Positions 5,232 through 30,375 of a stretch of 32,000 bases of DNA are shown here, in pieces. The notes beneath the pieces are model-generated. The model was not told where the DNA came from. It did not search any database and worked only from the letters and a program-made list of their open reading frames with translations. Location of the stretch: contig CP064992.1 in the NCBI GenBank assembly GCA_016699935.1, positions 1,140,001 through 1,172,000 of the forward strand, given 5' to 3'. Origin of the DNA: Candidatus Saccharimonadota bacterium (GTDB taxonomy: Bacteria > Patescibacteriota > Saccharimonadia > Saccharimonadales > UBA4665). The number at the start of each line of letters is the position of its first letter. The stretch's first letter is position 1. The position numbers were made by a program, and so were the translations under genes.

Positions 5232-5247
5232 ATTGTCTCCATTATAC

Positions 5248-5302
5248 AGAGTTAAGAGTTAAGAGTTAAGAGTTAAGAGTTAAGAGTTAAGAGTTAAGAG
5301 TT
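5248..5302. repeat. perfect 7-bp tandem repeat (GTTAAGA) of about 7.5 copies, between the upstream gene stop and the hisS start
   Basis: Read directly: agaGTTAAGAGTTAAGAGTTAAGAGTTAAGAGTTAAGAGTTAAGAGTTAAGAgtt. On the coding (minus) strand this is (AACTCTT)n ending immediately 5-prime of TATAAT-ggagacaat-ATG of hisS. Confidence 0.95.
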
Positions 5303-5304
5303 TC

Positions 5305-6048
5305 TTAGTTTATACCTAACTCCTCATATACAACCTCGTTAACCCTCGCAGCTAATCTGAAAGTGTTTGTTCCCAGTTTGCGGCGGATAGTAATAGCCTT
5401 CCCCGTGGGCTGAAAGATATCGCAATCAACCCCTGCGCTTCCTGCATCAGAAACGATGTAAGCCGCTAGGCTACCAGAACCGCACGCAGTCTCTCTCACA
5501 AACGAAGAAGTATCTCTAACAAAGACAAAAGGAACAATGCCTTTTGGTGAAGTCCATACAAGTCCGAAAGCAGGAAGGTTATATTGTTTGGCCATTCTTT
5601 CTAATGTTGGTTGAAGTTGAGTCTCTACGGGTCTGTTCTTTGTAACCACAAATCCAATTTGGCCAAGACTAACAATCATATCTTCTGGATCCAGTAGATT
5701 TGTGTCAATAACACTAGGAATATCAAGTTCAATATTTACCTGTCCTTTCATGCAGCGATATTCAACTATAGTTCCAAGCCCCGCGATAATCTTACCGGCT
5801 GGATTCCCGTACTATACGCCGCAGCCAATAATGCATTGAGGCACAGTTCGGCTCCCATCATTTCTAGAGTTGGCACTCCCGACGCTACGGTCTGAACAAA
5901 CCCAACCTGCTCGACTGCATTTCGATATAATAATTGTCTAGCATAATTTGCCTTATCGAGCGTGAAGACAGTCCGTTACTATCGCCGTTCTATTACCGCC
6001 TGCAATATCATAATAGCGGACACTACTCGCATTATTTACTTCACTCAT
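5305..6048 (-). CDS. DapF-fold two-cysteine epimerase/racemase-like protein; at least two frame breaks
   Basis: The C-terminal half (ORF 5305..5751) contains VRETACGSGSLAAY, like the second catalytic Cys motif of diaminopimelate epimerase-type enzymes. Upstream fragments translate to MSEVNNASSVRYYDIAGGNRTAIVTD... and ...EMMGAELCLNALLAAAY (first Cys motif). Start is the ATG at 6048 with a GGAG SD. Breaks lie near 5970-5985 and 5793-5803. Confidence 0.55.
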
Positions 6049-7722: not shown

Positions 7723-7945
7723 GTTTAACCTCCCCCAGCATTGGCTGGAATACATTAGTTGAAAATATGTCGTCGATTCGGACATGAAACACGCTTGCGA
7801 TCGCGAAGCCCAGCTCAAGGCTTGGAGAGTAATCTCCCCGCTCTATAAAGCCGATCGTCTGGTAGTTCACGCCTACTTTGTCCGCCAGTTCTTGCCGAGA
7901 CAGACCGTGCATGGTTCGGAGCGTTGCTAAACGATTGTATATCAT
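7703..7945 (-). CDS. XRE/Cro-family helix-turn-helix transcriptional regulator (about 80 aa)
   Basis: MIYNRLATLRTMHGLSRQELADKVGVNYQTIGFIERGDYSPSLELGFAIASVF is the canonical HTH_3 pattern. Start is taken at ATG 7945, because the upstream part of ORF 7703..7984 overlaps the promoter. Confidence 0.85.
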   Translation of the reverse strand: MIYNRLATLRTMHGLSRQELADKVGVNYQTIGFIERGDYSPSLELGFAIASVFHVRIDDIFSTNVFQPMLGEVKHEPKIK

Positions 7946-7955
7946 AACACAACAC

Positions 7956-7984
7956 ATTATTGCGCACCCACAACTTTTTGTCAA
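7956..7984 (-). promoter_or_regulatory. strong sigma70-type promoter (TTGACA-17-AATAAT), near-leaderless for the XRE gene
   Basis: Minus strand reads TTGACAaaaagttgtgggtgcgcAATAATgtgttgtgttATG: -35 at 7984-7979, -10 at 7961-7956. Only 10 nt separate the -10 box from the ATG, and there is no SD. Confidence 0.55.
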
Positions 7985-8202
7985 TACAAATAATGATTCT
8001 TAGGTCGCTCTGTATTTCTTTTTGTGCACTAGCAGCAATTCAGGTTGAACCTTTTGACAGTATAGGTAGTTGACTACTCAGCAGTACGGGTAGTGACCGG
8101 GCAATACAGCTCGTTGAGGCATCTAGAACTTAGTTTGTTCAGCAGTATCAGCTTTAATACATGTTTGCTTTTACTCTCGCTATAAAGAGTTTGAACCTAA
8201 AT

Positions 8203-8637
8203 CTAGTATTCAGGGTCGCCAGAATTACGTAGCTCGTCATCTAAAAGACGATGCATAATTACACCGCCTAGAACCGCTGTTAAATCTCCGTTAGTAATAG
8301 GGTCTACGATTAAAGCGTCAACTGGTCGGTCGTCAATTTCCAAAGGTCCATCTTGTTTACGAATAGCCCTAAGTACTTCTTCCGGCGTAAAGAGTTCGCG
8401 TGGTGATTTAGCAACATTGTAGCCAAGCCCTTTAGGGTCTATGTCAACTTGGTCCCATAGTGCTACAAGTGGGTAATGTCGTACGGAATCACCTTTTAAG
8501 GTGGTAGCGCTAACGCTAGCTTTCTTAACCACTAAAGGGTCTCTAGGAGAACCCGTGACTCCTTTACCTTCAACAAAATAAACTATATCGCCCACATTAA
8601 GTCGGCTTCTATATCCTTCACGTTCCTTCTCTGTCAT
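8203..8637 (-). CDS. hypothetical cytoplasmic protein
   Basis: Part of ORF 8203..8676. The TTG at 8676 is itself the -35 box of a promoter, so I start at ATG 8637 (MTEKEREGYRSRLNVGDIVYFVEGKGV...). No family recognised. Confidence 0.5.
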   Translation of the reverse strand: MTEKEREGYRSRLNVGDIVYFVEGKGVTGSPRDPLVVKKASVSATTLKGDSVRHYPLVALWDQVDIDPKGLGYNVAKSPRELFTPEEVLRAIRKQDGPLEIDDRPVDALIVDPITNGDLTAVLGGVIMHRLLDDELRNSGDPEY

Positions 8638-8646
8638 AATGCCTAT

Positions 8647-8676
8647 AATATACCACTCTTTGAATATATATGTCAA
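8647..8676 (-). promoter_or_regulatory. sigma70-type promoter (TTGACA-18-TATATT), near-leaderless
   Basis: Minus strand reads TTGACAtatatattcaaagagtggTATATTataggcattATG. Nine nt separate the -10 box from the ATG at 8637, and there is no SD. Confidence 0.5.
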
Positions 8677-8689
8677 TAGCTTCGTGCTG

Positions 8690-9286
8690 AGCCGTTATTA
8701 ACCTCACATACATTTTGTTCGTACCATCACTATTCAATATGCTTATCTGGCGTTACCGCATAACTGCTTGAACGTCGCCAACGTACACTCTACTTTCAAT
8801 AAGATTTGGAAGTTAATTTACCAGTCCGCTCTTATTAATTCTTGTCATTAGATGCGTAATATTTCCACCGTTCACGCATATAACGTCACTTTCCATGAGC
8901 CTTTGCAGCCACACTCCTCTTGGAACAGATGCTATGTCTATGATAACCAGCTGCGCAACACTCTCTTCTTTCAGCCGGATCATTTCCGCAATAGCCAGCC
9001 TTTATCCCCCGGCTCCAGATTCAATGCCGTTGGTATGAATGCGACATTTGTTGTGTATGGAATATGCATGATGCTAGAGGTACACTCGTACAGCATTGCC
9101 GCTTTCACCGGCTCATGACTATTACCCAATGCCTCACAAAGAAACCACGACTGACCCAAAATATTGAGCCGCGAGGCATGCTTGCTAGAACAGTTGAGCT
9201 GACCTTCATGGATGCATTGGCTGGATGGTACAAAAACATGGTAAATGGCTCAAGGTACGTAATACAGCCACTAAAAATATGCTCAT
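8690..9286 (-). pseudogene. peptidase S51 (dipeptidase E-like) gene, fragmented by at least four frame breaks; ends approximate
   Basis: Three-frame minus-strand translation gives consecutive pieces: ...NVAFIPTALNLEPGD, then RLAIAEMIRLKEESVAQLVIIDIASVPRGVWLQRLMESDVICVNGGNITHLMTRINKSGLVN, then LPNLIESRVYVG, then SSSYAVTPD. These match the S51 pattern (IAFIPTA..., I.V.GGNT..L......GL, VY.G.SAG). No ORF on this strand longer than 60 aa survives. It may be error-laden rather than dead. Confidence 0.5.
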
Positions 9287-9623
9287 GAGCGTACCAGGCG
9301 GGCGTATTTTTAGCCTGTGTAGAAACTTGCCGTAATTATTCACCTACCAAGCCGATTATATACAGGAAAGTGGCATCATAGCTGCAAACACTATGAGCCA
9401 ATTATACGATAGATTGGAGCCTGGAAAGACAAGCACATAGCGCATAGCGACTGCTCTAGAAAGCGTACTATTACAATCTTACGCTGTTTGTTCTCTGGAA
9501 GAACAGATTAGAAAAAGCCAGATTTTGATCTTAATCCCTATCATCAAATGAGCCACGATTAGGCTGTTGGTCGTGGCAAGTGATGGATTGTTGTGAATAT
9601 TCAGTATAGTTTCTGGAAGCGCC

Positions 9624-11180
9624 CTACTTCATGCGGTCGGGGTTATTAACGGCTGTTGTCCACTTTTGCACCTGTTTGTATTTTGGTAAAGTACTGTTGA
9701 GCTTGGCTATCTGACTCTTGAAGTCAGTACTACAGCCCTTGTCAACATAAAGCGTAGCTGTGATGACGTTATTATGATCGAATACCTTCGCTCTTGTGAC
9801 GCCTGGGATGGCAACGAGCAGTGTTTCTAGTTCATCGGGTGATACATTTTCGCCGTTGGAGGCGACGATCAGTAGTTTTTTGCGACCGATTACAAATAGA
9901 TTGTTTTTATCATCCTTATAGCCTATATCACCAGTATGGAAGTAACCTTCGGCGTCAAACGCCCGAGCATTAGCCACAGGATTATTGTAGTACCCTTTAC
10001 TGACGTTACCACCCTTCACCAGAATCTCACCGTGGCCGTCCTTGTCTACATCTGCAAATTTAACAGATATGTTTTCAAAGATGGTACCAACCGAATCAAT
10101 GACCTTGCTGTGTGGATACTCGACTGCGATCAAGGATGTTGTTTCAGACATTCCGTAACCCTCGATCACCGTCATGCCAACATCTTTGAAGAACCGTTTT
10201 ATCTTTGGGTCAAAGCGAGCGCCTCCACAATACATATAGCGGATATCTCCACCAAATACGTCGTGGAGTTTACGGAATAGATGCCTACGAATGTCTATTC
10301 CTATCGCGCCTAGCGCGTTGGCGAGCTTCATGCCTCTCTCAATTTTGGCCATAGTTGGCGCATCAATGGCTGAGTAAAAACGCTCATATACCAGTGGTAC
10401 CCCACAGAATATCGTTGGTCTAATGAGCTTCATCTCATCGACTATCTTGGCTGTATCAGAGCAAATATACAACTGACACCCCATATAAAATGAGTACATA
10501 AAGATGCTTACGCCAGCATACACATGGTGTAGCGGCAAAAACAGATAGTAGATGTCGTGCTCATTTGTTGGCGTACGTTGATATAGGTAGTCTCCGCATG
10601 CCAGCATGTTGTCGAGGGATAGTGTGACGGCTTTTGGGATAGAGGTTGAACCAGACGTAAAAACTATTTTGCAGATATCAGCACTCTGCTTAATGGAGTT
10701 GTCGAGATAGGAAGCATCCTGATCGAGTATCTTTCGTCCCTGCTGTAGCAAAGTATCAAAATCATTCTCTATGCACAGGTATGTGATATCAGGATAATCG
10801 GTTCGGAGCTTTTCCAGCATGCCCGACCTGTTGGACGAATAAATAATAACTTTGGCCTCAGCCGATTGTTGCGCAGCAAGTAAGTCATATGTCAGCCAAT
10901 CTTTGTTTGCGCCGATACTAATTCCGACGTATGCCATAACTGCCATGTCAGCTACCATCCACTCGTAGGAGTTATCGGCAAACAACATAACATTATCACC
11001 TTTGTGATTGTCTTTGATCAGGCTGGCTGCAAGCGCTCGAGCGTCATCGATAAAATCCCAAAAAGATTTACTGGCAAACTCATCGCCATTTTTCGACCAG
11101 ATATACGGTCTATCTCTCCACTTGGCATAATGAGTGTGCAATAATTCATCAATAGTCTGTGGTTTTGGCAGCTTAACCAT
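9624..11180 (-). CDS. AMP-dependent acyl-CoA/acyl-AMP ligase (long-chain fatty-acid ligase-like)
   Basis: Adenylate-forming core motifs are present: IVFTSGSTSIPKAV, EGYGMSETT, YFHTGDIGYKDDKNNLFVIGRKK. Start is taken at ATG 11180 (MVKLPKPQTIDELL), with an AGGAG SD, 1 nt after the upstream stop. The frame is intact. Confidence 0.85.
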   Translation of the reverse strand: MVKLPKPQTIDELLHTHYAKWRDRPYIWSKNGDEFASKSFWDFIDDARALAASLIKDNHKGDNVMLFADNSYEWMVADMAVMAYVGISIGANKDWLTYDLLAAQQSAEAKVIIYSSNRSGMLEKLRTDYPDITYLCIENDFDTLLQQGRKILDQDASYLDNSIKQSADICKIVFTSGSTSIPKAVTLSLDNMLACGDYLYQRTPTNEHDIYYLFLPLHHVYAGVSIFMYSFYMGCQLYICSDTAKIVDEMKLIRPTIFCGVPLVYERFYSAIDAPTMAKIERGMKLANALGAIGIDIRRHLFRKLHDVFGGDIRYMYCGGARFDPKIKRFFKDVGMTVIEGYGMSETTSLIAVEYPHSKVIDSVGTIFENISVKFADVDKDGHGEILVKGGNVSKGYYNNPVANARAFDAEGYFHTGDIGYKDDKNNLFVIGRKKLLIVASNGENVSPDELETLLVAIPGVTRAKVFDHNNVITATLYVDKGCSTDFKSQIAKLNSTLPKYKQVQKWTTAVNNPDRMK

Positions 11181-11181
11181 G

Positions 11182-12255
11182 TTACTGTATCTCCTTTTCA
11201 AGTAGTACGTAGTGGTATTGGTCGGCAATGTTGGTTTTCCCATATTCCTCTGTCACCTTGCCCTCAATAATCAATGCGCCAACGCATGACGCTAGTTTCA
11301 TAAACACCCGGGTAACGGCGGCGCGAGTAATGGCCCGGCCTAATCCGTGCCCCTGGTGTGCTTTGCGTACACCCAAGTACAGCATGATGTACCGTTTGCT
11401 TCGTATTTTCTTAAGCAGAATCCTCAGCTTGGTGAGCGGTGTAATCTTGCCATATAACAGATTGCCATAATCGGGTAACCCGACAAAAAACCCGACTGGT
11501 TGGCCGCCGTGGTATGCAATCTTAACCAGCGAATAGTCTAAGATGTAGCGATAGCTGTCAAAGTGTTTTCGGAAGTCTTCTTTGCTGACGTGCTTGAAGA
11601 TTGGGAAGTCGCTATAAAGCTCCATGAGCATGTCATAAATATAACCGAGTGTGACGTCGAACTCTTCTGGCTTGGGGCTAACAATCTTATAGCCTTCGCG
11701 TTTCGAGCTTGCATAGTCGCGGTTGAAATTAGCGGCTTCTTTGAGATTAATGCGATTCTTATAGATATTTGATACATACTTTTGTGAAACCCTATACCCA
11801 CTATCCAGGAAAAGATTTAGATAATATGATTTATTATACGGTTCGCCAATGTAGGGAGCGGCATCAAAATGGTCGGTCTTGAGACGGTATCTTATCCAAA
11901 AACTAGCATCAACCGGACCGGTAATCATACGCTTGTCCTGCATGGCAGCGTACGAATGGATTACTGCAAAGAGTGCTCTTGAGCAACTGACGTCATCTAT
12001 ACTCTCAAAGAAACCGATATAGGCAGCCGGGTCACCATCGTAGATTGTCAATGCAGCACGCGCGACAGGTGTTCCGTCCTGATACACCACAAAGCCTGTT
12101 AACTGAAAGTAGTCACTCAGTGGATGCTGTGCCAATAATAGCTGACGCTCTTCCTTTTCGTTCTGGATGCAGTCCCTTTTGCCATAGAGTTTTTTCGGAA
12201 CCGACAAGAAGTCTTCTGTATGCTGGCTCGTGCCACATTCAGTTACCGTGTACAT
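11182..12255 (-). CDS. two-domain GNAT-like acyltransferase family protein
   Basis: 357 aa. The C-terminal half carries the acetyl/acyl-CoA-binding motif A-like LGVRKAHQGHGLGRAI. The overall layout resembles the roughly 370-aa uncharacterised GNAT family proteins of Firmicutes and other bacteria (from memory). The ATG overlaps the upstream TAA by 1 nt. The frame is intact. Confidence 0.6.
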   Translation of the reverse strand: MYTVTECGTSQHTEDFLSVPKKLYGKRDCIQNEKEERQLLLAQHPLSDYFQLTGFVVYQDGTPVARAALTIYDGDPAAYIGFFESIDDVSCSRALFAVIHSYAAMQDKRMITGPVDASFWIRYRLKTDHFDAAPYIGEPYNKSYYLNLFLDSGYRVSQKYVSNIYKNRINLKEAANFNRDYASSKREGYKIVSPKPEEFDVTLGYIYDMLMELYSDFPIFKHVSKEDFRKHFDSYRYILDYSLVKIAYHGGQPVGFFVGLPDYGNLLYGKITPLTKLRILLKKIRSKRYIMLYLGVRKAHQGHGLGRAITRAAVTRVFMKLASCVGALIIEGKVTEEYGKTNIADQYHYVLLEKEIQ

Positions 12256-14798
12256 TATATAACCTCCACCGTTCCCTTTGTTCCGTCAATCCGCACACGA
12301 TCACCTGTCTTGAGCTTCTGTGTTGCTCCACGTACGCCAACCACTGACGGCACGCCAAGCTCGCGAGAAATGATTGCTGTGTGTGATAGGAGCGAACCTT
12401 TTTCGGCGATAACACCTTTTACAGTAGTCAGCAAAAATACCCAACCTGGATCCGTGGTGCGAGTAACCACTATCTTGCCTGTAGTATTAACCGCATCTTT
12501 TGGACTATATACAACAACTACCTCGGCCTCTGCTCTACCTGCGGAAGATCCTATGCCCGATAAGTTTGAGGAAAGCTGGTCATAATGAGCCGTAACGTGC
12601 TGCGGCTGCTTGTCGAATACGTCCTGCGCAAAGACAAGTCTCGAGTATGCCGGTAGGCCGGAGTATGCTGCATAGTCATTTTTTCGCTGCTGTATTGTAG
12701 CCAGAAAGTTTACTTTCGAGTCACGAACGCATTGCTCCAATTCATCGAAGTACAAATAGAAAACGTCACTGGCTGAGCCTAGTTGCCCTGCTTGTTGAAG
12801 CGTATCGGCAATCGACAGTACCACTGTTCGAACCATGCCGTAAATACGGCTACGATCTAGGCGAGAAGTTTCGCGGTTCCGTACGCCGACAATCATATGC
12901 TGACGGTAGAAACGAAGTAGTACCTGGTTTGGCCACGAATACTTGTCGATGCGTTTCTGAAAATCGGTCTCAGCTGGTTGTCGTTCCAGCGCGGCGATTA
13001 TCTCCGCTAGCGCCAGAGGATCACTCGCGTATGTAATGATCTGCTGCATCAGGAGGTGGGGCGAGCTACGAAACGTTTTGCTTTCAAGTTTGAGCTCCTC
13101 AAGTGAACGATCACCGTAAGTTTGCGTGTAGCTCCAAAATTTATCGGCAAATTCTGAATGGTGTTCTTCCAGAAGTGCACGTACGGCCTTGTCATCGGCT
13201 AAGCACATGAGATCATCGAGTATATTATGCTCTACAACATACTCTGCCAAAGTAGCGAGCTCCCGAACGGGCTGCATGCTTTCGATATCAGCGATACCAG
13301 AAAGCGATTTCTTTGTGGTTGTAGATGCGCCAAGCCGCTCAAGCTTGCGCTTCAGCAGGCTTGTAAAGACAAACGCGTACACATCATTGGATAGTGTAAG
13401 ATCCCAATTCTTTAGGATACTATTCGTTACCGAGTGGTAGAGCGTCATTTTTTGTTTAGGTGTAAGATCAGACCGGTAATGATCCCAAAAGTGGGACTCT
13501 GCCCGAAGAAAATCTGCATGAAGTACTCGCATTTTACGAGGAAGTGTCATGGTAAGCAATATCGACCGGAGTACTATCGCTAGGTCGCGTAGCGGATTCC
13601 AACGTTTTCTGTAAACGTCTGCTATGATGTGCTGCCGGTGGCTAACTCCCATCATTTCTTGCCATATAGGTATAATCCGACCGCTCAGGGGCAAAAACTG
13701 CATTAGCGTATACCAGTTACTAATTCTGTAGTAGACTCGTCCGTTTACGCTAGTAACCATGTGCTGCAATAGCGGCTCGTACTGTGTAATCAATTTCTTG
13801 CTGCCCGTCCCTCGCTGCAACAGTCCCCGAAATACATGGTAGTACGCTTGTTGTATGAAACTGACCGTCAACGGCAAGGTTATGCCTGGATAGCTTTCTA
13901 CAATATTGCTGTTGTCCAGTATTGTCGGCTCAGTATCATCGATAGTGGTAATTTTGCGCACCTGGAGAACGTAGACCCGTTCACTCTTAATCGCAAATTC
14001 GATGTCTATATAGGTACCGAAATGTTCTACCAGTTGTCCGCAAAGTGCAATCAGCTCTGTGACGTGTGTTTCCCCAAGGAGAGGCGCACCCGGTTGTCGT
14101 TCATGATAGTAGGCAGCATCAGTTACGTTGTAATAGTATGATGTTGTCGCAACCTTATCTCCAACAATGTGATCACCAGTTCCCTTGCCCACGGTTATGA
14201 CTGTCTCATTCAGCAACCCTTGTGGATTTGCGCTAAACATAACGCCCGATACGTCTGCCTCAATCATCTCCTGAATGATAACGCACATACTCAGTTCAGT
14301 TGGTGGCACCGATGTGTTGCAGCAGTACTTCAAGACGCTCGGAGCGTAGAGCGATTGCCAGCAATCCACAATCCGCTTGATAACCTTTTCGCGCGGGACA
14401 CGCAGAAATGTCTCGAATTGCCCTGCAAATGAAGCTGCCGCTGAGTCTTCAACCGACGCTGACGACCGAACTGAGAAGACGGTTCCATGAGCAAACTGAT
14501 CATCCAAAGCTTGCTCGATTGCTCGCCGTGCCTGATCATCAATTTCTATTTTGGCGATACTAGCGCTTAACTGCTTGCTCGCACCAATAATGTTAGTTTC
14601 ATTGTTGCCCGTAATGGCTCGTAATGCGGCCGTAACTTCTGTATCGTACTTCGATAAACATGCAGCTAGCAGATCTGGAGATACACATATAAAGTGCGGA
14701 ACAGCATACCCTTTTTTTTGTAGTGCAAATAAGTTGGTAGCTTTGGTGCCGATATTTACATTGCCCGAAGCGTTACCGTTAATGATGAGCGGTGACAT
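12255..14798 (-). CDS. PEP-utilising dikinase-type protein, fused (ATP-grasp PPDK_N + central helical domain + swivel His domain); rifampicin-phosphotransferase/PpsA-like architecture
   Basis: 847 aa. N-terminus: GTKATNLFALQKKGYAVPHF, FSVRSSASVEDSAAASFAGQFETFLRV, VIIQEMIEADVSGVMFSANP, DIEFAIKSERVYVLQVRKIT. C-terminus: TDPGWVFLLTTVKGVIAEKGSLLSHTAIISRELGVPSVVGV (phospho-His motif). The frame is intact. Confidence 0.85.
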   Translation of the reverse strand: MSPLIINGNASGNVNIGTKATNLFALQKKGYAVPHFICVSPDLLAACLSKYDTEVTAALRAITGNNETNIIGASKQLSASIAKIEIDDQARRAIEQALDDQFAHGTVFSVRSSASVEDSAAASFAGQFETFLRVPREKVIKRIVDCWQSLYAPSVLKYCCNTSVPPTELSMCVIIQEMIEADVSGVMFSANPQGLLNETVITVGKGTGDHIVGDKVATTSYYYNVTDAAYYHERQPGAPLLGETHVTELIALCGQLVEHFGTYIDIEFAIKSERVYVLQVRKITTIDDTEPTILDNSNIVESYPGITLPLTVSFIQQAYYHVFRGLLQRGTGSKKLITQYEPLLQHMVTSVNGRVYYRISNWYTLMQFLPLSGRIIPIWQEMMGVSHRQHIIADVYRKRWNPLRDLAIVLRSILLTMTLPRKMRVLHADFLRAESHFWDHYRSDLTPKQKMTLYHSVTNSILKNWDLTLSNDVYAFVFTSLLKRKLERLGASTTTKKSLSGIADIESMQPVRELATLAEYVVEHNILDDLMCLADDKAVRALLEEHHSEFADKFWSYTQTYGDRSLEELKLESKTFRSSPHLLMQQIITYASDPLALAEIIAALERQPAETDFQKRIDKYSWPNQVLLRFYRQHMIVGVRNRETSRLDRSRIYGMVRTVVLSIADTLQQAGQLGSASDVFYLYFDELEQCVRDSKVNFLATIQQRKNDYAAYSGLPAYSRLVFAQDVFDKQPQHVTAHYDQLSSNLSGIGSSAGRAEAEVVVVYSPKDAVNTTGKIVVTRTTDPGWVFLLTTVKGVIAEKGSLLSHTAIISRELGVPSVVGVRGATQKLKTGDRVRIDGTKGTVEVI

Positions 14799-14801
14799 CG
14801 T

Positions 14802-15703
14802 TTACTGTCCCTGTCCACGTACTATGAGGAGTATCTCTGTAGCGATTAGTACTGCCTGCACCAGATATATATAGATACGCGCAACCTTGCCATATGAGAA
14901 ACGCACTGGGTTACTCATGTACACCAAGCTAGCCCACACAACTCCCACATAGACCAGCGCGAGTAGCCCAACTGCAACCGTAGAGAGTGGATAGACAACA
15001 ATCCCCAACGACACAAGCTGAGCGAGTAACACCACAAGCACTGTTATTACTGCCGGTTTATTGCCAAGTATTTTGGAGTACGTTGTGTACTGATTCTCAT
15101 CTTGAGGTGCTTTGATTTTGCGGCTAATTTCCCAGGCTAACGCTGGGAAATATAGTGAGCTGGCAATCAGTATGGTTGTCCAAGTAAAGACGGGCAGATG
15201 ATATGCAATACACGTAAACGAAATAATATAGAACACTAGTATGAACTGCACAGGGTTATGTGTCGCAAGTGCCAATAGTAGATTTGGCTGTATATACCGT
15301 TTGGCAAAAACCATACCGACATGAGCGCCGCATATGCCAGCAGCACAGCAAAATAGATAGTGTTATTCATGAACACCAAGTTCAGCACAACAATTATAGA
15401 AAGACTGGTTGCGAAGAGAGTAATAAGATCACGCTTTTTGACTCTGCCAGACGGCAGCGGACGATGTGGGAAGTTTATCTTATCAGTTTCGGCATCCTTA
15501 AATTCATCGGCAATTCTTAGCGATAGCAAAAATACAAACACGGTCAGGCTACCGATAATCTTGCGTAATCCAACAGTAATGGTGCCGACATGGCTAGTAA
15601 GCAGCACCAGATAATACACAACAAAGAAGAGCCCACCGCTGACAATGAGCCGGGAAACCGGCGGATACATTTCATGCAGATAAACACTAAGTCGTTTGAA
15701 CAT
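14802..15703 (-). CDS. UbiA-superfamily prenyltransferase; one frame break
   Basis: ORFs 15236..15748 and 14802..15314 join at the A5 run 15306-15310 (...AALMSVWFFAKRYIQPNLLLALATHNPVQF...). First Asp-rich motif: RIADEFKDAETDKINFPHRPLPSGRV, compared with NDxxDxxxD...RPxPSG of DGGGP synthase/UbiA enzymes. About eight TM segments. Start is ATG 15703, with a GGAGGA SD. Confidence 0.8.
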
Positions 15704-16643
15704 GCACAGCTCCTCCAATTGTTTCGCCCATATGTACTTTTGTTTCAACTCCCTTACGAGACTGCACTAGTATATCCTCATCAATATATATTGCGCCTTT
15801 TTGGAAGAACAAAATAATCGTTGATCCGCCAAGGCCAAAGTAACCTTTCTCCTCACCTTTCTGAAAAACGTTGAGTGCATGGTTATTGATTTTGCCTACA
15901 AGCAAGGCACCTACCTCCATCGCTACTACATCACCGAAATGGTCTGTGCGCGTCAGTGTGTACTCACGGTAGTTTTCAGTAAAAACCTTGTGATGCTTAG
16001 CGCTGATTGGCTGTACGGTGTGCAGTCGCCCATTGATTGTCCGGTGAGAAATAATATGCCCGTCATCGATAAAACAATAGCGGTGGCAATCCCCCATTGC
16101 GAGCCGGAATACCAAACAAGTACCCCCATGATATTGCTGAGCCAGTGCACTATCACACAGTATCTCAACGAGCGTATAGTCACGGTGTTTCACGCGTATT
16201 GTGTTGTTATCATGAAGAATATATGTCATCACTTGCGCATCAGCTGGTGATATTAACGTATTCACGCCAATCGCAATCGGGCGTTTGTGCGGGTCAAGTT
16301 TTCTTTCAAAGAAATCATTGAATGATCTGTACGGCGTGCTTACGTAATCTGCCTGGTCAATGCCGTACTGGTCAATAAAGGGTTGGATCTTGCGCCGTGA
16401 GCGGGGCTAGCATTAAACCAAGCATTCAGTTGTGAATACCAGCACCGAGAAAAAATAAGCCATAACAGCAACCTGCCGGGAACGGTTTCATACAAAAACT
16501 TGAGCTGTTTCTCGCCGTATTGATCTACGCTACAGGCGGCCTGTTTTGTCGGTCATAGACGGTAACGCTCATCGGGTTCCCAGTAACAGCACTACGGGTG
16601 TCAGCACTATAGCCAACAGTACGAGTACTATATAACCAAACAT
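15687..16643 (-). CDS. psd: phosphatidylserine decarboxylase proenzyme; three frame breaks in the 5-prime third
   Basis: ORF 15687..16265 contains the self-cleavage region FGLGGSTIILFF (LGST type). The same frame continues upstream as SRRKIQPFIDQYGIDQADYVSTPYRSFNDFFERKLDPHKRPI. Further upstream pieces read MFGYIVLVLLAIVLTPVVLLLGTR / SVTVYDRQNRPPVA / VDQYGEKQLKFLYETVPGRLLLWLIFSR. Breaks lie near 16570, 16530 and 16408. Start is ATG 16643. Confidence 0.8.
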
Positions 16644-17189
16644 CGTTGGTTTTTAAAGCGTATATTTGCAATAAACAGCAGCGCCAAACAGGCAACCAGT
16701 CCTGCGCTTACGACACCCGCACGTGCAGGACTCATCTGAACGGTCGCAATATACACCAACGGGAAAATAAGCGCCGCAGCGGTAACCGGGAAGCCAGTAT
16801 ATGCTTGGCGTGGCCGCGACCGGTCGCTATATTGAACAGACCAAGTCGCGTAATACCGGCTAATACAAGTGCAATATAGGCGGCTACATCATACCAAGCT
16901 GTGTAGCCAAGTGCCGCGAAGAGTATAACCGGCAGCAGGCAGAACGAAATAATATCAGCCAGTGAGTCTACCTGAACACCGAAAGCTTTTCATCCTCGGT
17001 TCGCTTGCAATGGCGCGCAACCGTACCATCAAATATGTCGCAAATCCCGGCAATCATCAGACAAACGAAACCGTAACTTACCTTGCCCCTCAGTGCAAAG
17101 ATCATTCCCGCTACCGCTGTAGCCACACCAAGATACGTCACAAGAAGCGAACGGTTGTATATGCCGATGAACGGTTGCTTTGTGCGTCA
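16628..17189 (-). CDS. pssA: CDP-alcohol phosphatidyltransferase, phosphatidylserine-synthase-like; three frame breaks
   Basis: Reconstructed minus-strand translation gives ...QPFIGIYNRSLLVTYLGVATAVAGMIFAL...LMIAGICDIFDGTVARHCKRTEDEKLFGVQVDSLADIISF, i.e. the D-x2-D-G-x2-A-R...G-x3-D-x3-D motif. Breaks lie near 17175, 16983 and 16798. The ATG at 17189 overlaps the upstream stop (ATGA). The raw track shows only spurious + ORFs here. Confidence 0.75.
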
Positions 17190-17585
17190 TGCTTTCGTCT
17201 CCACAATAGTTATGTGTCCGGTCGCTCCATCAATCTCAATAGTACTGCCATCTTGGATGGTGGTGGTTGCGTTTGGGACGCACACAACGCAAGGGATACC
17301 GTACTCTCGTGATACAATCGCTGCATGGCACAGAATGCCACCATATTCAGTCACTACCCCTTTGATAATCGCGAACTTGCTTGTCCAGCCGGTGTCAGTA
17401 AATTTTGTTACCAAAATATCATTCGGTTGCAATCGTCCAATATCCTCTAGCCCGTCGATAACACGTGCCGTACCAGAGATGATCCCCGTATTGCAGCCGA
17501 CGCCGTTCAGATCACCTACCTTGAGTTTTGATTTTTGTGGATGACTAGTTTTGAAAACGGAACCAATGGCATTTTGGGTTGTCAT
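17187..17585 (-). CDS. stand-alone PEP-utilising enzyme mobile (swivel phospho-histidine) domain protein
   Basis: 132 aa: GVGCNTGIISGTARVI...ILVTKFTDTGWTSKFAIIKGVVTEYGGILCHAAIVSREYGIPCVVCV, the canonical PEP-utilizers motif with the His. It is paralogous to the C-terminus of the 847-aa protein. Confidence 0.85.
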   Translation of the reverse strand: MTTQNAIGSVFKTSHPQKSKLKVGDLNGVGCNTGIISGTARVIDGLEDIGRLQPNDILVTKFTDTGWTSKFAIIKGVVTEYGGILCHAAIVSREYGIPCVVCVPNATTTIQDGSTIEIDGATGHITIVETKA

Positions 17586-17624
17586 AATTCTTAAACGAGT
17601 TATAGTACAACCGGTTTTTCTGGA

Positions 17625-19704
17625 TTATAGGTGTAAGTCGGCTGTAGTCTTTTGCTTGTCGACAAAATCGCAGATGTCATCAATCTTCAGGTAGAAGATG
17701 TCGTTGACTTCATGAAGCACACCAGCATCTACGTACATTTGGGCAAGTTTAAGCGTATACATGCGAATGATGTAATACATTCTGGTAGAAGTGTCGCGTA
17801 ATTCTTCACGCCACCAGAGAAGTGAGCGTATATCCTCGATGCTCCTCACGAGGGTTTTGTATTTTCTGGATGATACTTTGGCCTGTAGCGCAATGAGTTC
17901 TTTTTGGTATGACTGCTTTTGCTTGGCCTCTGGGTCGGTATCAATCACTGATGGGCCAAGCACAATGGCGTCCTTAACCATCTGGATAATCCGCTCGGTA
18001 TCTTCAAAGTAACACTGATGTGTTATGTCAAGCTCTTTATCCGAGTGATAGCCGTATGTCTCAACGTACACGCGGACATCATTCAGGAAGTGTTGCGTAC
18101 CGCCCTGGTCATAGCATGTTTTGATAGCTTTGGCCGATGTGTTGCGCCAATAATCGCTGCTCGCAGTGTTAGCGGTAATCTTGCGGCCCAGGGCCCACAT
18201 ATCCCGCGCTGGTAAAACATGTGAAATATTATCAAGCCCGCCAAGCAGGGTGAGGTATTCAGCATAACTGACGTGTTTTAGCAATTTATCCTTAAACAGC
18301 GTTTGGCGAATGGTATTGATAAAAATCTGCCAAAAGTACGTGCCCTCGGTCTGCAAGTAATCTTTACGAATAAGTGTCCGCCAAAGTCCTTGCAACTCAT
18401 CCAGGGTATATTGCTTGGACCACCTGTCACGATAGTCTCGATAGCTCTGTAGTACTGCTGCTCTGTGGGCCTCGACTGTCGCCTTCTGCTGCTTGTAAAT
18501 GCGAAGCTGGGGGCCAACCATGAGGAGCACATTCCTAAGCGAGCGAAGGATAAGCCTGTTACCTTGCCTTTGCCCTTGTAAGTACTGGTAATACCCAGCT
18601 CGTCATCGAACTCCTTTCAATATATCCTGGTACTTTAGCCATTGCCTCTTTACGACACTTGCATTCCAATACGGCCGGCCGTAAAACATATTGCCTAGCT
18701 TGCGCATCTCTGATGATTTCATGATTTTCGACTGAGTCAAAACTTGTAGAGCATTGTTTCCCAGATGAACTCATACAGGCTCCACATATACGGCGTGCAT
18801 ACAGTTGCCGATACGCCGCCGTCCTTGAAGTCAGCCATCGTCCACTGGTCGAGTATTTCACCATACAGAATCCTGGTGATAGCCCGCGCCTGCAAGATAA
18901 AAAGCTCGTCATTACGCACTGCAAATTCGATGTCGACAGGATAGCCAAAAAGGCTTGCAGCTTCAGCGCAGTATCCACGATGGTCTGTTGCATAGCAGGA
19001 GGAATGACTGGACTATCTGGGCGCTCTACGTATACACCATCGTACCAGTTGTAGACGTAGCGCTCCGCTGCAACCTTGCCAGTTACCAGGTTCTCGCCGA
19101 GGCCTTTGGTAGCCTCAACGATTATCTCTTTGTCTACACCTGTAACGGGATTTACGGTGAAGATGACGCCGCTGGCGTTGGCGGGCACCATTTCCTGCAC
19201 AATGACAGCCATCTGAAGATTCTGCACGTCTAGATTATTATCTATCATGTACGAGAGTACCGTTTCATCAAACATGGACTGATAGCAGGCAATGATCTTC
19301 TGGCATATGTCATCAATGCCATGTACGTTCAGAAACGTCTTATACTGCCCGGCAAATGATAATTCAGGTAGATCTTCCTTGAGCCCGCTACTTCTAACTG
19401 CATACAAGACGCCTTGTTTGAGATGTTTCTCGATGTCATGCCGTAGGCTATCCATGATTGTGCATGTGCCAATAAGCGATGTTAGGCGATCACTGACATC
19501 ACAAACCGTTCCTTTGGTTATCTGCGCACAGAGTTTCGCTACTTTTTTGGATGTATCGTTGTCAGCAATAATGCTCTGCATGGTTCTGCTATCAAGAATA
19601 AAGCCGTCCGGGACATTGAACCCCTCATGCTTCATTCGTGACAAGAAAAGCGCTTTATTGCCAATTGTGCGCTCTCCTCCCTGACCACCGATTGTTGTAA
19701 GCAT
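17625..19704 (-). CDS. PEP-utilising dikinase-type protein lacking the swivel domain (ATP-grasp PPDK_N + central helical domain); five clustered frame breaks
   Basis: ORF 18559..19704 contains GNKALFLSRMKHEGFNVPDGF, YAVRSSGLKEDLPELSFAGQYKTFLNV and VIVQEMVPANASGVIFTVNP. It continues through fragments FFGYPVDIEFAVRNDELFILQARAITR... / LTQSKIMKSSEMRKLGNMFYGRPYWNASVV / KEAMAKVPGYIE / FDDELGITSTYKGKGKVTGL into ORF 17625..18530, the central domain, which is similar to the middle of the 847-aa paralogue. Breaks lie at about 18949, 18740, 18650, 18616 and 18537. Confidence 0.75.
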
Positions 19705-19706
19705 GT

Positions 19707-20299
19707 TTATACGTTCTTCTTAAGCTTCACTGCATACAATAATACATTAGTAACGATGTGCGTTGTACCCCCAATCGTCACATATGCCAGGTAGAACCAG
19801 ATCGTCATCGGATAGAAAAAGCTTACCACTAGCACGCAGCCAAAAAGTGAATCGACTTGGTCGAGCACTAGAAATGGAATACCCCTAATGCCTCTTGGTG
19901 TCTTGCCTGATCTAATCCCTAGTCTCCGCTTCATGTAGCTATTCGGCAATTCAAACAATACGTATGCGAAACCGACGATACAGCCTACTAACAGATTGAA
20001 CACGACAGTATTGGCGTGGGTGTGGTATAGAAAGTTATGGGCAGATACTGAGGGAATGAGGCTGCAAATAAAGCCCCAGATGACGGTAATTAGCCCCGTT
20101 AGGACTACCATCCCCAGAACCCTTTCCATGTTTTATTGTCACCAAATAAACGCCGATTGTCTGAAAGCAGTCGCTTGCCATCCATAGAATGTTTCATACC
20201 ATTCAAGAATGTCGATTTGACAAAGACCATATTCAACACACCAGCCAGAATAACTGGCAATAGCGTCACATACATTCCCAGGACGAGGGTTAACTGCAT
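19707..20299 (-). CDS. CarS-like (CDP-archaeol synthase / DUF46 family) CTP-dependent membrane transferase; one frame break
   Basis: ORFs 20105..20299 and 19707..20129 join at the C4 run 20112-20115. The motifs MDGKRLLSDNRRLFGDNKTWKGFWG and PNSYMKRRLGIRSGKTPRGIRGIPFLVLDQVDSLFG match my memory of the CarS family consensus (P.D.G...DG.R..G..KTW.G and SF.KRR.G...G...P..DQ.D). About five TM segments. It is the first gene of the operon, with an AGGAAGG SD and a TATAAT at 20323-20318. Confidence 0.7.
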
Positions 20300-20746
20300 C
20301 TACCTTCCTTTTTCTCGATTATACATCAAAATACGTCGATGATGGCGGGTGATCTGCAGAGAATCAATACGAACCCATCTCATATCTTTCTCTGAAGTTC
20401 AAGGGTAAAAACTGGCGAGAAAGATAGCAGAACTGTGCAACAAGGCGTAACCATTGATACGCCGCGAAGCAAAGGACTGGTAGCTTTCCGTCAGTTTTGG
20501 TCGCAGAACAGAGATAAAATATGAAATGGGTTCTACGTCAGTATTGTATGATCCACCGCCAACTGTTCGATAGAAATCTTCGATATGCCAACAGTCTTGA
20601 CTTACGTAAAATACTTTGTGGAACACCTCAAAGATCTATTCGTTGACCACTGTAATCCCATCATGCAGGCACACGTTTTTTGGCGTCATTTTCGATCAGA
20701 CGCCAAACTACGCAGAAATAGCCTGTGTAACCGCCGAACTATCAAA

Positions 20747-20790
20747 ATCCCAGGAGTGAACGAGCTTTGTAAGCTCGCAGATCCTGGGAT
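20747..20790 (-). terminator. long imperfect hairpin with U-tract (possible terminator)
   Basis: ATCCCAGGA (20747-20755) pairs with TCCTGGGAT (20782-20790), with an inner CGAGC/GCTCG stem. On the minus strand it is followed by ttttgatagtt. It sits 9 nt after the tRNA 3-prime-end fragment. Confidence 0.4.
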
Positions 20791-20798
20791 TGTTGATT

Positions 20799-20817
20799 TG
20801 GTGCGCGAGAGAGGACT
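20799..20817 (-). repeat. 19-nt exact copy of the tRNA-Leu 3-prime end (T-loop end + acceptor + CCA)
   Basis: tggtgcgcgagagaggact is identical to 20996-21014, the 3-prime end of the intact tRNA-Leu 197 bp upstream on the same strand. The upstream part does not fold as a tRNA. Confidence 0.85.
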
Positions 20818-20960
20818 AGCGCACTCGGTTTGCGCTGCAAAGCCGGGTACTTCTCCGCTACGGCGTGCTCGGTGCAAGCACCTGTGCGCGTCCTCGCTCC
20901 GCGACCTCCCGTTCGCTAAGCTCACTCACGAGGTTCTGCGTCCTCTTACGCTTTCAGACC

Positions 20961-20992
20961 AAAACAAAACCGGTCATAGAGACCGGCTCTTG
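20961..20992 (-). terminator. rho-independent terminator immediately after tRNA-Leu
   Basis: Minus strand reads aaaacaagaGCCGGTCtctatGACCGGTtttgttttgg: stem 20970-20975 / 20981-20986 (extendable with G-U pairs), followed by a U-rich tract. Confidence 0.6.
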
Positions 20993-20995
20993 TTT

Positions 20996-21079
20996 TGGTG
21001 CGCGAGAGAGGACTTGAACCTCCATGCCTTTCGGCACCAGCTCCTAAAACTGGCGTGTCTACCATTCCACCACTCGCGC
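20996..21079 (-). tRNA. tRNA-Leu (anticodon UAG), type II with long variable arm, CCA encoded
   Basis: Minus strand reads GCGCGAG-TG-GTGGAATGGTAGACAC-G-CCAGT-TTTAGGA-GCTGG-TGCCGAAAGGCAT-GGAGG-TTCAAGT-CCTCT-CTCGCGC-A-CCA. Folded by hand: 7-bp acceptor stem, anticodon loop TT-TAG-GA, variable stem-loop, and a T arm with TTCAAGT. Confidence 0.9.
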
Positions 21080-21203
21080 ATATAACCAAAAAGGTTCAAG
21101 AATTATTATATCGGACTTGGTCGTTCCGCGACCCCGCAACTTCATCTTTGAAAACAAGTTTTCAAGAGAAGATTGCCTTGCGAACCGCCACAGGCGGCTC
21201 TCA

Positions 21204-21265
21204 CCTCCATGCCTTTTAAGCACCAGCTCCTAAAACTGGCGTGTCTACCATTCCACCACTCGCGC
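21204..21265 (-). pseudogene. truncated upstream paralogue of tRNA-Leu(UAG): 5-prime two-thirds only
   Basis: 62 nt match positions 1 to about 62 of the intact tRNA, differing only in the variable loop (ttaaaa versus cgaaa). After GGCATGGAGG the sequence diverges (tgagagccgcctgtggcgg...), with no T-loop or acceptor 3-prime strand. Both copies have TATAATAAT at the same offset (21102-21110 and 21288-21296, 23 nt from the 5-prime end). Confidence 0.75.
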
Positions 21266-21406: not shown

Positions 21407-22159
21407 ATGGCAGAAGAAATCGTTGTAGTTAAATTTGGCTCAGAGCTTATAACTGACCAGAATGGGCTAAATCCTGAGGCGATACAAGGCTATGTAAATG
21501 GCTTATGCAAGTACCACGAAGGTGCAAGTCTAGTTGTTATAACCTCTGGTGCGGTTGCGACCGGTCGACACATTTTGTCGGAAAATGGCAAGGATAATAC
21601 TAAATTCAGCGATCAGCAGCGAGCACAACTTGGAGGCAGCGTAGTTTTTACGGCTTGGCAGTCCGCCTTCGAACGTGCTGGTCATATGGCAGGTGGTTTG
21701 CTGATCACCCATCATGACCTAACGCTTTCTGCTGAAAGTAATAGTTTGCGTAATTTGCTACAAAGAAATATAAGTAGTGGCATTATTTCAGTGATTAATG
21801 CCAACGACGCGCTGAATTTAGCAGAGCTACTACAGCTTCCAGCAGGTGCTGATAATGACGCTCTAGCCTCACACATAGCTCGGTTTATGCATGCGACCAG
21901 ACTGAGACTGTTTACACTAGGTGGAGGTATTGTTGATGATACCGACCAGTTAGTTGAGCTGGTAACTGAGCAAAATATCGGCTCTGTGACAGATATGGTC
22001 AGCCAGAGAAAACCGGGCAATGGCCGAGGTGGCATACAAAACAAATTAGCATCTGCTTGGGATTATGTGATTCATACGAAAGGAATCGCTGAAATTTCGA
22101 AGCCAGACAAACTGATGGGTGGGAATACTCAAACCGTTTTACGCTCAATAGCTTGTTAG
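21407..22159 (+). CDS. proB: amino-acid-kinase family protein, glutamate 5-kinase-like (no PUA domain)
   Basis: 250 aa. It aligns by eye with E. coli ProB: VVVKFGSELIT (VVKLGTSVLT), VVITSGAVATGR (VIVTSGAIAAGR), ISVINANDAL (VPVINENDAV), AGADNDALASHIA (VGDNDNLSALAA), GRGGIQNKLASA (GTGGMSTKLQAA). No proA is adjacent. Confidence 0.7.
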   Translation: MAEEIVVVKFGSELITDQNGLNPEAIQGYVNGLCKYHEGASLVVITSGAVATGRHILSENGKDNTKFSDQQRAQLGGSVVFTAWQSAFERAGHMAGGLLITHHDLTLSAESNSLRNLLQRNISSGIISVINANDALNLAELLQLPAGADNDALASHIARFMHATRLRLFTLGGGIVDDTDQLVELVTEQNIGSVTDMVSQRKPGNGRGGIQNKLASAWDYVIHTKGIAEISKPDKLMGGNTQTVLRSIAC

Positions 22160-27837: not shown

Positions 27838-27916
27838 ACGAAAGTATTATAGATTATTGGCTTAATATTGCCGAATTATGGCGCGTCAGCTGGCAGAATA
27901 GATTGGGCGAATGCAA

Positions 27917-28985: not shown

Positions 28986-29026
28986 GTCAGCAATTCTACC
29001 CTATAGTTGCTACAATGAAAACATTT

Positions 29027-30269: not shown

Positions 30270-30295
30270 GGTGGTAGTATACAGATTTACGCTAT

Positions 30296-30375
30296 GAGAG
30301 TTAAGGGCTGTCAGATTAGAAATAAGAGTGGTGAGATAAGAGATAAGAATAGTGAGCGGAAAGTGAAAATGATGT
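30296..30375. repeat. degenerate purine-rich heptad-periodic tract related to the hisS-upstream repeat
   Basis: gagttaa gggctgt cagatta gaaataa gagtggt gagataa gagataa gaatagt gagcgga aagtgaa aatgatg. The first unit, AGAGTTAAG, is the unit of the 5248-5302 array, and its complement supplies the TTAACT -35 box for tyrS. Confidence 0.5.

Follow-up and report, generated by a model that had tools for sequence, protein, structure and literature searches.

A tightly packed eight-gene operon with predicted membrane-lipid functions on an apparently acquired island of a Candidatus Saccharibacteria genome

We analyzed a 32,000-nucleotide stretch of contig CP064992.1 (assembly GCA_016699935.1, positions 1,140,001 to 1,172,000 of the forward strand), hereafter the window, from a 1.23-Mb metagenome-assembled genome (MAG) of Candidatus Saccharibacteria, and focused on a cluster of genes resembling enzymes of lipid metabolism. 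The open reading frame (ORF) coordinates and a direct reading of the letters revealed continuous minus-strand coding across 9624-20299, in agreement with the co-directional block proposed in a first-pass annotation of this DNA. We conclude that the cluster is a real, tightly packed operon of eight genes, in the order CarS-like enzyme, dikinase DK1, PssA-like transferase, Psd, UbiA-like protein, dikinase DK2, tandem GNAT and acyl ligase. The first-pass annotation had counted nine, because it listed two parts of one dikinase gene ("ATP-grasp plus central" and "swivel-His") as separate ORFs. Every Pfam family that it predicted was found over the block (CarS-like, PPDK_N, PEP-utilizers, CDP-OH_P_transf, PS_Dcarbxylase, UbiA, Acetyltransf_1 and AMP-binding), and three of the eight gene products are polytopic membrane enzymes belonging to lipid pathways. 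As it had also stated, plsX/Y/C, cdsA, GGGPS and G1P dehydrogenase were not among the window ORFs tested.

Most of the gene junctions described earlier were recovered from the ORF coordinates: a 2-nt gap between CarS and DK1, an ATGA overlap between DK1 and PssA, a 17-nt overlap of Psd with UbiA (start at 15703), a 3-nt gap between UbiA and DK2, a 1-nt overlap between DK2 and GNAT, and a 1-nt gap before the ligase (start at 11180). Two were not. The supposed 39-nt in-frame gap (17625-17585) lies inside the single dikinase gene and comes from two compensating single-base errors, being the stretch from a missing base near 17629-17654 to an extra base near 17571-17575. The supposed 16-nt PssA/Psd overlap becomes, after indel correction, an ATGA overlap at 16572-16569, with the Psd start ATG on the PssA stop. 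Ahead of the first gene, the TATAAT at 20323-20318 and the Shine-Dalgarno sequence AAGGAAGG directly before the ATG at 20299 are both present on reading the sequence, as had been noted. A generic promoter scan left this TATAAT site out for want of an acceptable -35, and sites resembling promoters were no commoner in the region than in shuffled sequence.

The CarS, DK1, PssA, Psd and UbiA genes are broken in this assembly by about 15 single-base indels, of which 14 are a missing base, mostly in homopolymer runs (for example GGGG at ~20112, and TTTTT at ~15309 and ~18955). We placed the indels by aligning the window, with a frameshift-aware dynamic-programming method, to the uninterrupted proteins of locus L033, the closest relative; this assigned one to CarS, seven to DK1, four to PssA, two to the 5' end region of Psd and one to UbiA. 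The corrected ORFs had zero in-frame stops left, and the corrected proteins were 43-58% identical to those of L033, compared with 49-57% for the intact DK2, GNAT and ligase. As a control, we aligned housekeeping genes of the window to their intact orthologues in a sister genome and counted 23 frameshifts in 12.6 kb of coding sequence, including nine in TyrRS (28943-30359), three in MurT (26506-27927), two in HisRS (3785-5321) and two in trigger factor. Throughout the window the errors in housekeeping genes were mostly missing bases, often in homopolymers. Because essential genes with like errors cannot all be pseudogenes, we attribute the indels to the assembly and conclude that those in the operon are assembly artefacts rather than decay; pseudogenization of the operon, which we had considered, was rejected on this control. 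The density of indels is uneven, with none in the last three genes (9624-14798, 5.2 kb) and about 15 in the first five (14802-20299, 5.5 kb), for which local polishing coverage may be the cause. Gene models from this assembly require indel correction throughout the window. The QQS-series protein accessions probably belong to long-read activated-sludge MAGs.

The CarS-like gene encodes a predicted CTP-dependent membrane enzyme of 197 aa after correction (19707..20299, minus strand, as are all genes of the operon). PF01864 CarS-like matched both of its fragments (ORFs 20105-20299 and 19707-20129), and inserting the one G missing from the G-run at ~20112 restored an ORF whose product is 58% identical to the L033 homologue. 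The window fragment scored 35.3 bits in Pfam against a gathering threshold of 22, and the intact homologue from locus L003 scored 61.2 bits. With the CarS equivalog NF003114, the L003 protein scored 74.1 bits and did not reach the cut-off of 148. A profile of the CarS-like family matched the Aeropyrum CarS structure 5GUF (E 8.7e-9), and the GDxKTxxG, SFxKRR and DQxD blocks aligned with 5GUF, with residues that are invariant in our family alignment (A3). The CarS-like protein most probably converts CTP and a lipid phosphate to a CDP-lipid.

The next two lipid genes encode candidate head-group enzymes. The PssA-like CDP-alcohol phosphatidyltransferase (16569..17190, ~207 aa, ~4 single-base indels) was detected by PF01066 CDP-OH_P_transf on a 57-aa fragment at 16968-17141. 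Its corrected ORF keeps the CDP-alcohol motif D-x2-DG-x2-AR...G-x3-D-x3-D as CDIFDGTVAR...FGVQVDSLAD, with a spacer 3-4 residues longer than in the PssA of M. jannaschii, and the L033 homologue matched the structures of that enzyme (7B1K/7POW, E 1e-7). Archaetidylserine synthase was the top NCBIfam match, below its cut-off; the L003 homologue scored 69.9 bits with that model against a cut-off of 240, and 60.9 bits with PssA against a cut-off of 107, so that neither was reached. The phosphatidylserine-decarboxylase family protein Psd (15687..16572, ~294 aa) was matched by PF02666 PS_Dcarbxylase on ORF 15687-16265 (E 2e-45), and its translation contains SPAD, DCHR and the self-cleavage motif LGGST. 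The Psd equivalog NF001941 (cut-off 371) was not reached by the L003 protein (283 bits) or by the 192-aa window fragment (204.6 bits).

The UbiA-superfamily prenyltransferase-like membrane protein (14802..15703, ~300 aa) is encoded by a gene with one T missing in the T-run at ~15309. Against a PF01040 cut-off of 34.2, the window fragment (ORF 15236-15748) fell just under at 32.1 bits and the intact L003 protein passed at 37.6 bits. The L003 protein also reached the unnamed family NF010118/PRK13592 (446 against a cut-off of 443). The sole PDB sequence match with E <0.01 for the family was the M. jannaschii DGGGP synthase, 6M31; with the DGGGP synthase equivalog NF009522 the score was 20.4 bits, which did not reach the cut-off of 353. 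The first Asp-rich motif, (N/D)DxxDxxxD in the superfamily, takes the form RIAD(D/E)FKDxExD and is invariant in 21 UbiA-like sequences (alignment A2). The D..D...D of DGGGPS reads K..A...D in this family. Invariant Arg-Lys and Ala-Pro, within positions 180-192 of the corrected window protein (window ~15130-15170), stand at the place of the second Asp-rich metal-binding motif of canonical UbiA enzymes. As read from the alignment, the family is a clear departure from characterized UbiA enzymes. Because the canonical second Asp-rich motif is replaced, the UbiA-like protein may not be a conventional prenyl-diphosphate transferase.

Both dikinases have the architecture of rifampicin phosphotransferase (RPH), with PPDK_N, Rph_4th and swivel-His domains, and both keep the catalytic His motif. 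DK1 (17187..19704, ~838 aa, ~7 indels) consists of an ATP-grasp (PPDK_N), a central helical and a swivel-His domain, with Pfam matches to PPDK_N on 18559-19704 and to PEP-utilizers on 17187-17585. Frameshift-aware alignment to the L033 DK1 gave 49% identity over 840 columns with no stop, and in all relatives DK1 is a single ORF of 834-843 aa with PPDK_N, Rph_4th and PEP-utilizers. Its His motif GGILCHAAIVSREYGIP is present, and the catalytic His lies within ...LCHAAIVSREYGIP. DK2 (12255..14798, 847 aa, PPDK_N and PEP-utilizers) is intact, with its catalytic His within ...LSHTAIISRELGVP. The best PDB match of DK2 was the Listeria rifampicin phosphotransferase 5FBS (E 5e-48). With the unnamed NCBIfam family NF004882 (cut-off 850), the L003 DK2 scored 929.7 bits and the window DK2 832.7. 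The RPH equivalog NF041857 (cut-off 999) was not reached by the window DK2 (236 bits), the L003 DK2 (210) or the L003 DK1 (312), nor was PpsA TIGR01418 (cut-off 739.75; dikinases 178-267 bits), and PEP-utilizers_C, the phosphoenolpyruvate (PEP)/pyruvate TIM barrel, was absent from every DK1 and DK2 examined by Pfam. The dikinases have the RPH architecture, but the scores place them outside the RPH and PpsA orthologue groups, as the earlier proposal required, and they probably use RPH-like phospho-His chemistry.

The last two genes are intact. The tandem-GNAT acyltransferase (11182..12255, 357 aa, identical to QQS18411.1) gave a weak PF00583 match on its C-terminal half. Its AF2 model (pLDDT 92) matched tandem GNATs in Foldseek with E 1e-14; the top matches were 2WPW, 7Q3A, 5KF1 and MshD 2C27, and the nearest folds are the clavulanate CBG protein, MAB_4324, a clostridial glucosamine N-acetyltransferase and mycothiol synthase. 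The C-terminal half carries the acyl-CoA motif HQGHGLGRA, and G295, G304 and G306 are invariant. A search of 1.84 billion representatives placed 257 representative clusters in the family at E<=1e-30. The acyl-AMP/CoA ligase of the ANL family (9624..11180, ~518 aa from the second ATG, where the alignment to the L033 ligase begins) was matched by PF00501 AMP-binding on ORF 9624-11243 (E 6e-55, 187 bits). Its best NCBIfam matches were long-chain fatty-acid-CoA ligase subfamilies, all below cut-off, and by these matches it is a generic fatty-acyl-type ANL enzyme. One member of the GNAT family is a natural fusion protein (P0171, 831 aa) that joins this tandem GNAT (residues 1-354) to an AMP-binding ligase domain (380-711), which argues that GNAT and ligase form one functional step.

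We then considered how widely the cluster occurs. A genome scan with DK2 as the query and one genome per species returned 26 loci, nearly all from Clostridia, with one short contig labelled Candidatus Nomurabacteria. Hosts included Pseudobacteroides cellulosolvens, Acetivibrio, Saccharofermentans, Butyrivibrio sp. XPD2006, [Clostridium] symbiosum, Acetatifactor and many Lachnospiraceae. Through homologues of the GNAT we also reached loci in Clostridium felsineum and Vagococcus sp. BWB3-3 and on several metagenomic contigs. A metagenome scan yielded two distant loci only, and a plasmid collection contained only distant dikinase homologues. The closest relatives of the window proteins are only 50-58% identical. 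We determined cluster contents by tblastn with the window proteins and the L033 proteins as queries. A long form, CarS-DK1-PssA-Psd-UbiA-DK2-GNAT with or without the ligase, is co-linear on one strand in about 15 loci; two further loci (L007 and L027) have the long form without DK1, and the cluster of L001 is without Psd. A short form, mostly UbiA-DK2-ligase-GNAT, occurs in about 16 loci, in many gut Lachnospiraceae (in L034 without the ligase), and the Acetatifactor loci (L011/L021/L022/L025) have UbiA-DK2 alone. Because the order recurs in >30 independent loci, the arrangement is far beyond chance. The predictions that relatives would keep the gene order and that the CarS-like gene would be linked with the dikinases were thus borne out, in about 15 long-form loci and in at least 15 loci, respectively.

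UbiA lies next to DK2 in 26 of the 26 genome loci. The first-pass annotation had cast UbiA, ligase and GNAT as side steps, and the distribution reverses this: UbiA with DK2 is invariant, ligase and GNAT are usual, and CarS-DK1-PssA-Psd is optional. Since the core occurs without head-group genes, we regard UbiA-DK2 (with or without ligase-GNAT) as the core module and CarS-DK1-PssA-Psd as an extension. The natural variants at L001, L007, L027 and the Acetatifactor loci are ready-made "knock-outs" for comparative lipidomics. Inspection of locus neighbourhoods revealed no further gene family consistently linked with the cluster. In 8 of the 26 loci, of both long and short form, genes for a BlaI/CopY-type repressor and a BlaR1-type sensor immediately adjoin it (including L008 3670-7573, L010 1837-4205, L012 3872-8454, L018, L019, L021 and L025), which suggests control by an envelope signal. 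In L029, a geranylgeranyl-reductase-family gene (504-1829; 124 bits to the DGGGPL reductase model, below cut-off) lies directly upstream of the CarS-like gene, and a radical-SAM gene (11101-11985) follows GNAT in the ligase's place. The reductase-like neighbour occurs in one organism only among the loci (L030 is the L029 sequence from a second sample) and therefore lends weak support.

The window and a sister genome (GCA_964427315.1, L035; neighbouring protein 84% identical, flanks 65-88% identical in nucleotides) are syntenic on both sides of the cluster, through ClpP, trigger factor, HisRS, Band_7, an HTH gene, tRNA-Leu, AA_kinase, RsmD, RecG, GatD, MurT, TyrRS and PBP. The cluster itself is absent from this syntenic sister. 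By blastn, window 7986-20959 (12,974 bp) stands where L035 has 168 bp: window 7812-7985 corresponds to L035 9386-9559, and window 20960-21091 to L035 9728-9862. This island holds the operon, an ORF at 8203-8676 and a Peptidase_S51-like stretch at ~8700-9400. A more distant relative with different synteny also had no cluster near its gene for the neighbour with the AA_kinase domain. The simplest reading is that the cluster is an accessory island gained horizontally; it may instead have been lost in the sister lineage.

The island adjoins the 3' side of a tRNA-Leu gene (20996-21079, minus strand; ARAGORN and Rfam). Of the 25 nucleotides at 20793-20817, 24 match the 3' end of this tRNA and adjoining bases, and they include an identical 19-mer, for which an exact search returned two matches against zero expected. 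A second copy, 63 nt of the tRNA's 5' part, lies at ~21203-21265, with 111 bp of unrelated sequence (21092-21202) between it and the intact gene. These partial copies point to repeated recombination at tRNA-Leu. We found no integrase gene for the island, and a repeat search found no distal att repeat. The G+C content is 46% in the island and 47-50% in the flanks, which is no useful difference. Patescibacteria without fatty-acid synthesis may recycle the lipids of other bacteria (PMC12455944), and the first-pass annotation had explained the cluster as lipid scavenging in a reduced genome. As the reason for the cluster's existence, that explanation is not supported, since the cluster is native to free-living Clostridia and Vagococcus. 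Nor is the cluster a hallmark of genome reduction, since a syntenic sister Saccharibacteria genome is without it.

Taken together, we lean, by a modest degree, toward an eight-gene operon for a specialized membrane lipid that sits on a horizontally acquired island and whose apparent fragmentation is an artefact of long-read assembly. Its product would most likely be an isoprenoid-bearing membrane lipid with a phosphoserine and then a phosphoethanolamine head group. In this scheme the UbiA-like enzyme, whose closest solved relative is an archaeal DGGGP synthase, would build a prenyl-bearing lipid. An RPH-type dikinase would phosphorylate the lipid hydroxyl through phospho-His (ATP to AMP + Pi) to yield a lipid phosphate monoester, which the CarS-like enzyme would convert with CTP to a CDP-lipid. 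The PssA-like transferase would then exchange CMP for serine, and Psd would decarboxylate the serine to give a phosphoethanolamine head group. Acting as one unit, the acyl-CoA ligase and tandem GNAT would acylate an amine, either of the head group or of an amino-alcohol precursor. One speculative order that would use every gene in both forms is ligase, GNAT, DK2, UbiA, (DK1), CarS, PssA and Psd.

Several observations argue for such a pathway. Three polytopic membrane enzymes of lipid pathways are translationally coupled with soluble activating enzymes, which argues for a membrane-lipid pathway, and after correction the catalytic motifs are intact: both swivel His residues, the CDP-alcohol motif, SPAD/DCHR/GGST of Psd, the CarS blocks and the first UbiA Asp motif. 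CarS requires a lipid phosphate monoester and CTP. RPH-family enzymes phosphorylate hydroxyls of hydrophobic substrates through phospho-His, and the lipid phosphate would therefore most naturally come from a dikinase. Because the substrates of Psd enzymes are phosphoserine diesters, the most probable product of the PssA-like enzyme is a lipid-phosphoserine, formed from the CDP-lipid. The kinship with archaeal enzymes suggests a prenyl group on this lipid, added by the UbiA-like enzyme.

Other observations weigh against this pathway. The equivalog cut-offs of CarS, PssA, archaetidylserine synthase, Psd and DGGGPS were all missed, so orthology to these enzymes is not established. The second Asp-rich DxxxD motif of the UbiA-like protein is replaced by an invariant W-E-x-x-R-K-x-x-A-P-x-D-E. 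In none of the loci examined was GGGPS, G1P dehydrogenase or a polyprenyl synthase linked. N-acylation of the Psd product cannot be a universal role for GNAT and ligase, because the short form is without PssA and Psd. The two dikinases cannot be assigned separate roles, and the clusters of L007 and L027 carry DK2 only. Lastly, DK2, GNAT and ligase are free of indels as opposed to the upstream half, though the local density in TyrRS is similar to that of the latter.

A bolder reading, which we advance tentatively, is that the operon represents a third bacterial route to CDP-activated lipids. An isoprenoid-bearing alcohol would be phosphorylated by an RPH-type dikinase and activated by a bacterial CarS homologue, leading to acylated serine and ethanolamine lipids. 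With the same reserve, we suggest that the phosphate would not be inherited from glycerol phosphate and that this archaeal-like pathway would be native to Clostridia and mobile into the Saccharibacterium. Equally conjectural is a non-canonical donor or acceptor for the atypical UbiA-like enzyme, in which the second metal motif has become Arg-Lys.

We also weighed readings other than a bulk membrane lipid. An unlikely but serious one is that the operon makes a low-abundance bioactive compound, a signalling lipid or natural product: ligase and GNAT would make an N-acyl amino alcohol or amino acid, DK2 would phosphorylate it, and the UbiA-like enzyme would prenylate it, with the long form adding phosphoserine or phosphoethanolamine. 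The short form does stand alone in many gut Lachnospiraceae, and the cluster is accessory. The GNAT fold resembles those of biosynthetic N-acyltransferases (the clavulanate CBG protein, MshD and histidine N-acyltransferase), and the natural-product condensing enzymes PigC and RedH belong to the same dikinase superfamily. Yet no other tailoring or export genes are consistently linked, and CarS, PssA and Psd form the classic head-group route of membrane phospholipids.

A prenol-salvage pathway seems distinctly unlikely to us. Here the CarS-like protein would be a CTP-dependent prenol kinase and a dikinase would add the second phosphate, so that prenyl diphosphate feeds the UbiA-like enzyme while PssA and Psd make phosphatidylethanolamine (PE) in parallel. 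Dolichol and phytol kinases of a related cytidylyltransferase family are CTP-dependent, the plant VTE5/VTE6/VTE2 route is a precedent, CarS-like homologues match CTP_transf_1 weakly, and two phosphorylating enzymes are present. Salvage would suit the Saccharibacterium if it is without isoprenoid precursor synthesis. However, the coupling of DK2 to UbiA is strict in Clostridia, where prenyl diphosphates would be expected to come from the cell's own synthesis. The CDP-alcohol transferase of the same operon needs a CDP-activated substrate such as a cytidylyltransferase would supply, and the three CarS signature blocks are conserved.

Resistance to envelope stress or xenobiotics is improbable. It would have the RPH-like kinases and GNAT inactivate antibiotics while the lipid genes remodel the membrane under BlaR1/BlaI-type control, as the adjoining regulator pair in 8 of 26 loci and the rifampicin phosphotransferase match of DK2 might suggest. 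Against it, the dikinases scored 210-312 bits with an RPH model whose cut-off is 999, strict co-linearity with three membrane lipid enzymes is unexpected for drug-modifying enzymes, and PADLOC returned zero matches. Regulation by envelope stress is also compatible with a membrane-lipid operon. Least credible of all is a decaying, non-functional relic with real frameshifts on an island eroding after transfer: the concentration of indels in the first five genes and the degraded Peptidase_S51-like stretch downstream would suit it, but essential genes of the window show errors of the same kind at a similar rate, most errors are single-base deletions at homopolymers, and the proteins, once corrected, retain every catalytic motif and are as similar to their relatives as is normal.

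Among known systems, the favoured membrane-lipid operon most resembles the archaeal archaetidylethanolamine route, in which the same four enzyme families occur together (DGGGP synthase, CarS, archaetidylserine synthase and decarboxylase). The closest solved structures are archaeal (6M31 DGGGPS, 5GUF CarS and 7B1K PssA), as are the top NCBIfam matches of the CarS-like and PssA-like proteins. The cluster differs in that its scores lie far below the equivalog cut-offs and no GGGPS or G1P dehydrogenase is linked. Moreover, its two dikinases, tandem GNAT and ligase are without archaeal counterpart, the second Asp-rich motif of its UbiA is replaced, its Psd is of the clostridial PRK00723 type, and its hosts are bacterial. 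The bacterial CdsA-PssA-Psd route shares CTP activation of a lipid phosphate, serine exchange and decarboxylation, and also the Psd and CDP-alcohol transferase families; however, the cluster has a CarS-like enzyme in place of CdsA, and its lipid phosphate apparently does not come from PlsX/Y/C. It is also accessory rather than housekeeping: the sister genome is without it, and in Clostridia it comes as an additional set. With the RPH superfamily, including the PigC/RedH condensing enzymes, the dikinases share the ATP-grasp, Rph_4th/central and swivel-His domains and the catalytic His motif, but they score 218-289 bits against PigC/RedH cut-offs of 1300-1350 and their genes are embedded in a lipid operon. 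FCB-group bacteria likewise have homologues of archaeal isoprenoid-lipid enzymes, namely GGGPS and DGGGPS but no CarS (Villanueva et al. 2020, PMC7852524), whereas the cluster has CarS-like and DGGGPS-like proteins, no GGGPS, and dikinases in addition.

CTP activation, serine transfer and decarboxylation are the classical logic for PE and archaetidylethanolamine. What is new here, as predicted from sequence, is the coupling of a head-group route to phospho-His dikinases, a CarS homologue in a bacterial lipid operon, an atypical UbiA subfamily and an attached tandem-GNAT/ligase unit. Targeted full-text searches of the literature returned no description of the cluster and, as the first-pass annotation had supposed, no characterized pathway that pairs dikinases with head-group assembly; most subscription-journal papers lie outside that coverage. 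If the proposed pathway is true, RPH-like "PEP synthase" paralogues, which are abundant and mostly unassigned in Firmicutes, would gain a role in lipid metabolism. It would also mean bacterial use of a CarS-type enzyme, which earlier surveys of archaeal-lipid genes did not find and which bears on the bacterial/archaeal lipid divide. Cultured, tractable organisms carry the cluster (Clostridium felsineum, Pseudobacteroides cellulosolvens, Butyrivibrio and Vagococcus), which makes its function directly testable. Given how common the cluster is in gut Lachnospiraceae, its product might represent a new class of microbiome lipid. In the Saccharibacteria, the island would document horizontal acquisition of a complete lipid operon at a tRNA locus.

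The remainder of the island and its border hold three further features. The ORF at 8203-8676 (minus strand, 157 aa) had no Pfam, NCBIfam or PADLOC match. The region at 8680-9620 had been taken by eye for a metallophosphoesterase, an assignment that we rejected because Pfam gave a weak Peptidase_S51 match only (~8700-9400, minus strand, 22.7 bits, no open frame); this may be another frameshifted or degraded gene. Beside the island, a gene on the plus strand (21407-22159, IPL68_07580) encodes a 250-aa AA_kinase-domain protein without a PUA domain. We considered it as an isopentenyl-phosphate kinase and discarded that assignment, as it scores as ProB-like instead. A search of 5.8 billion proteins returned only about 30 relatives of this protein, mostly on small contigs.

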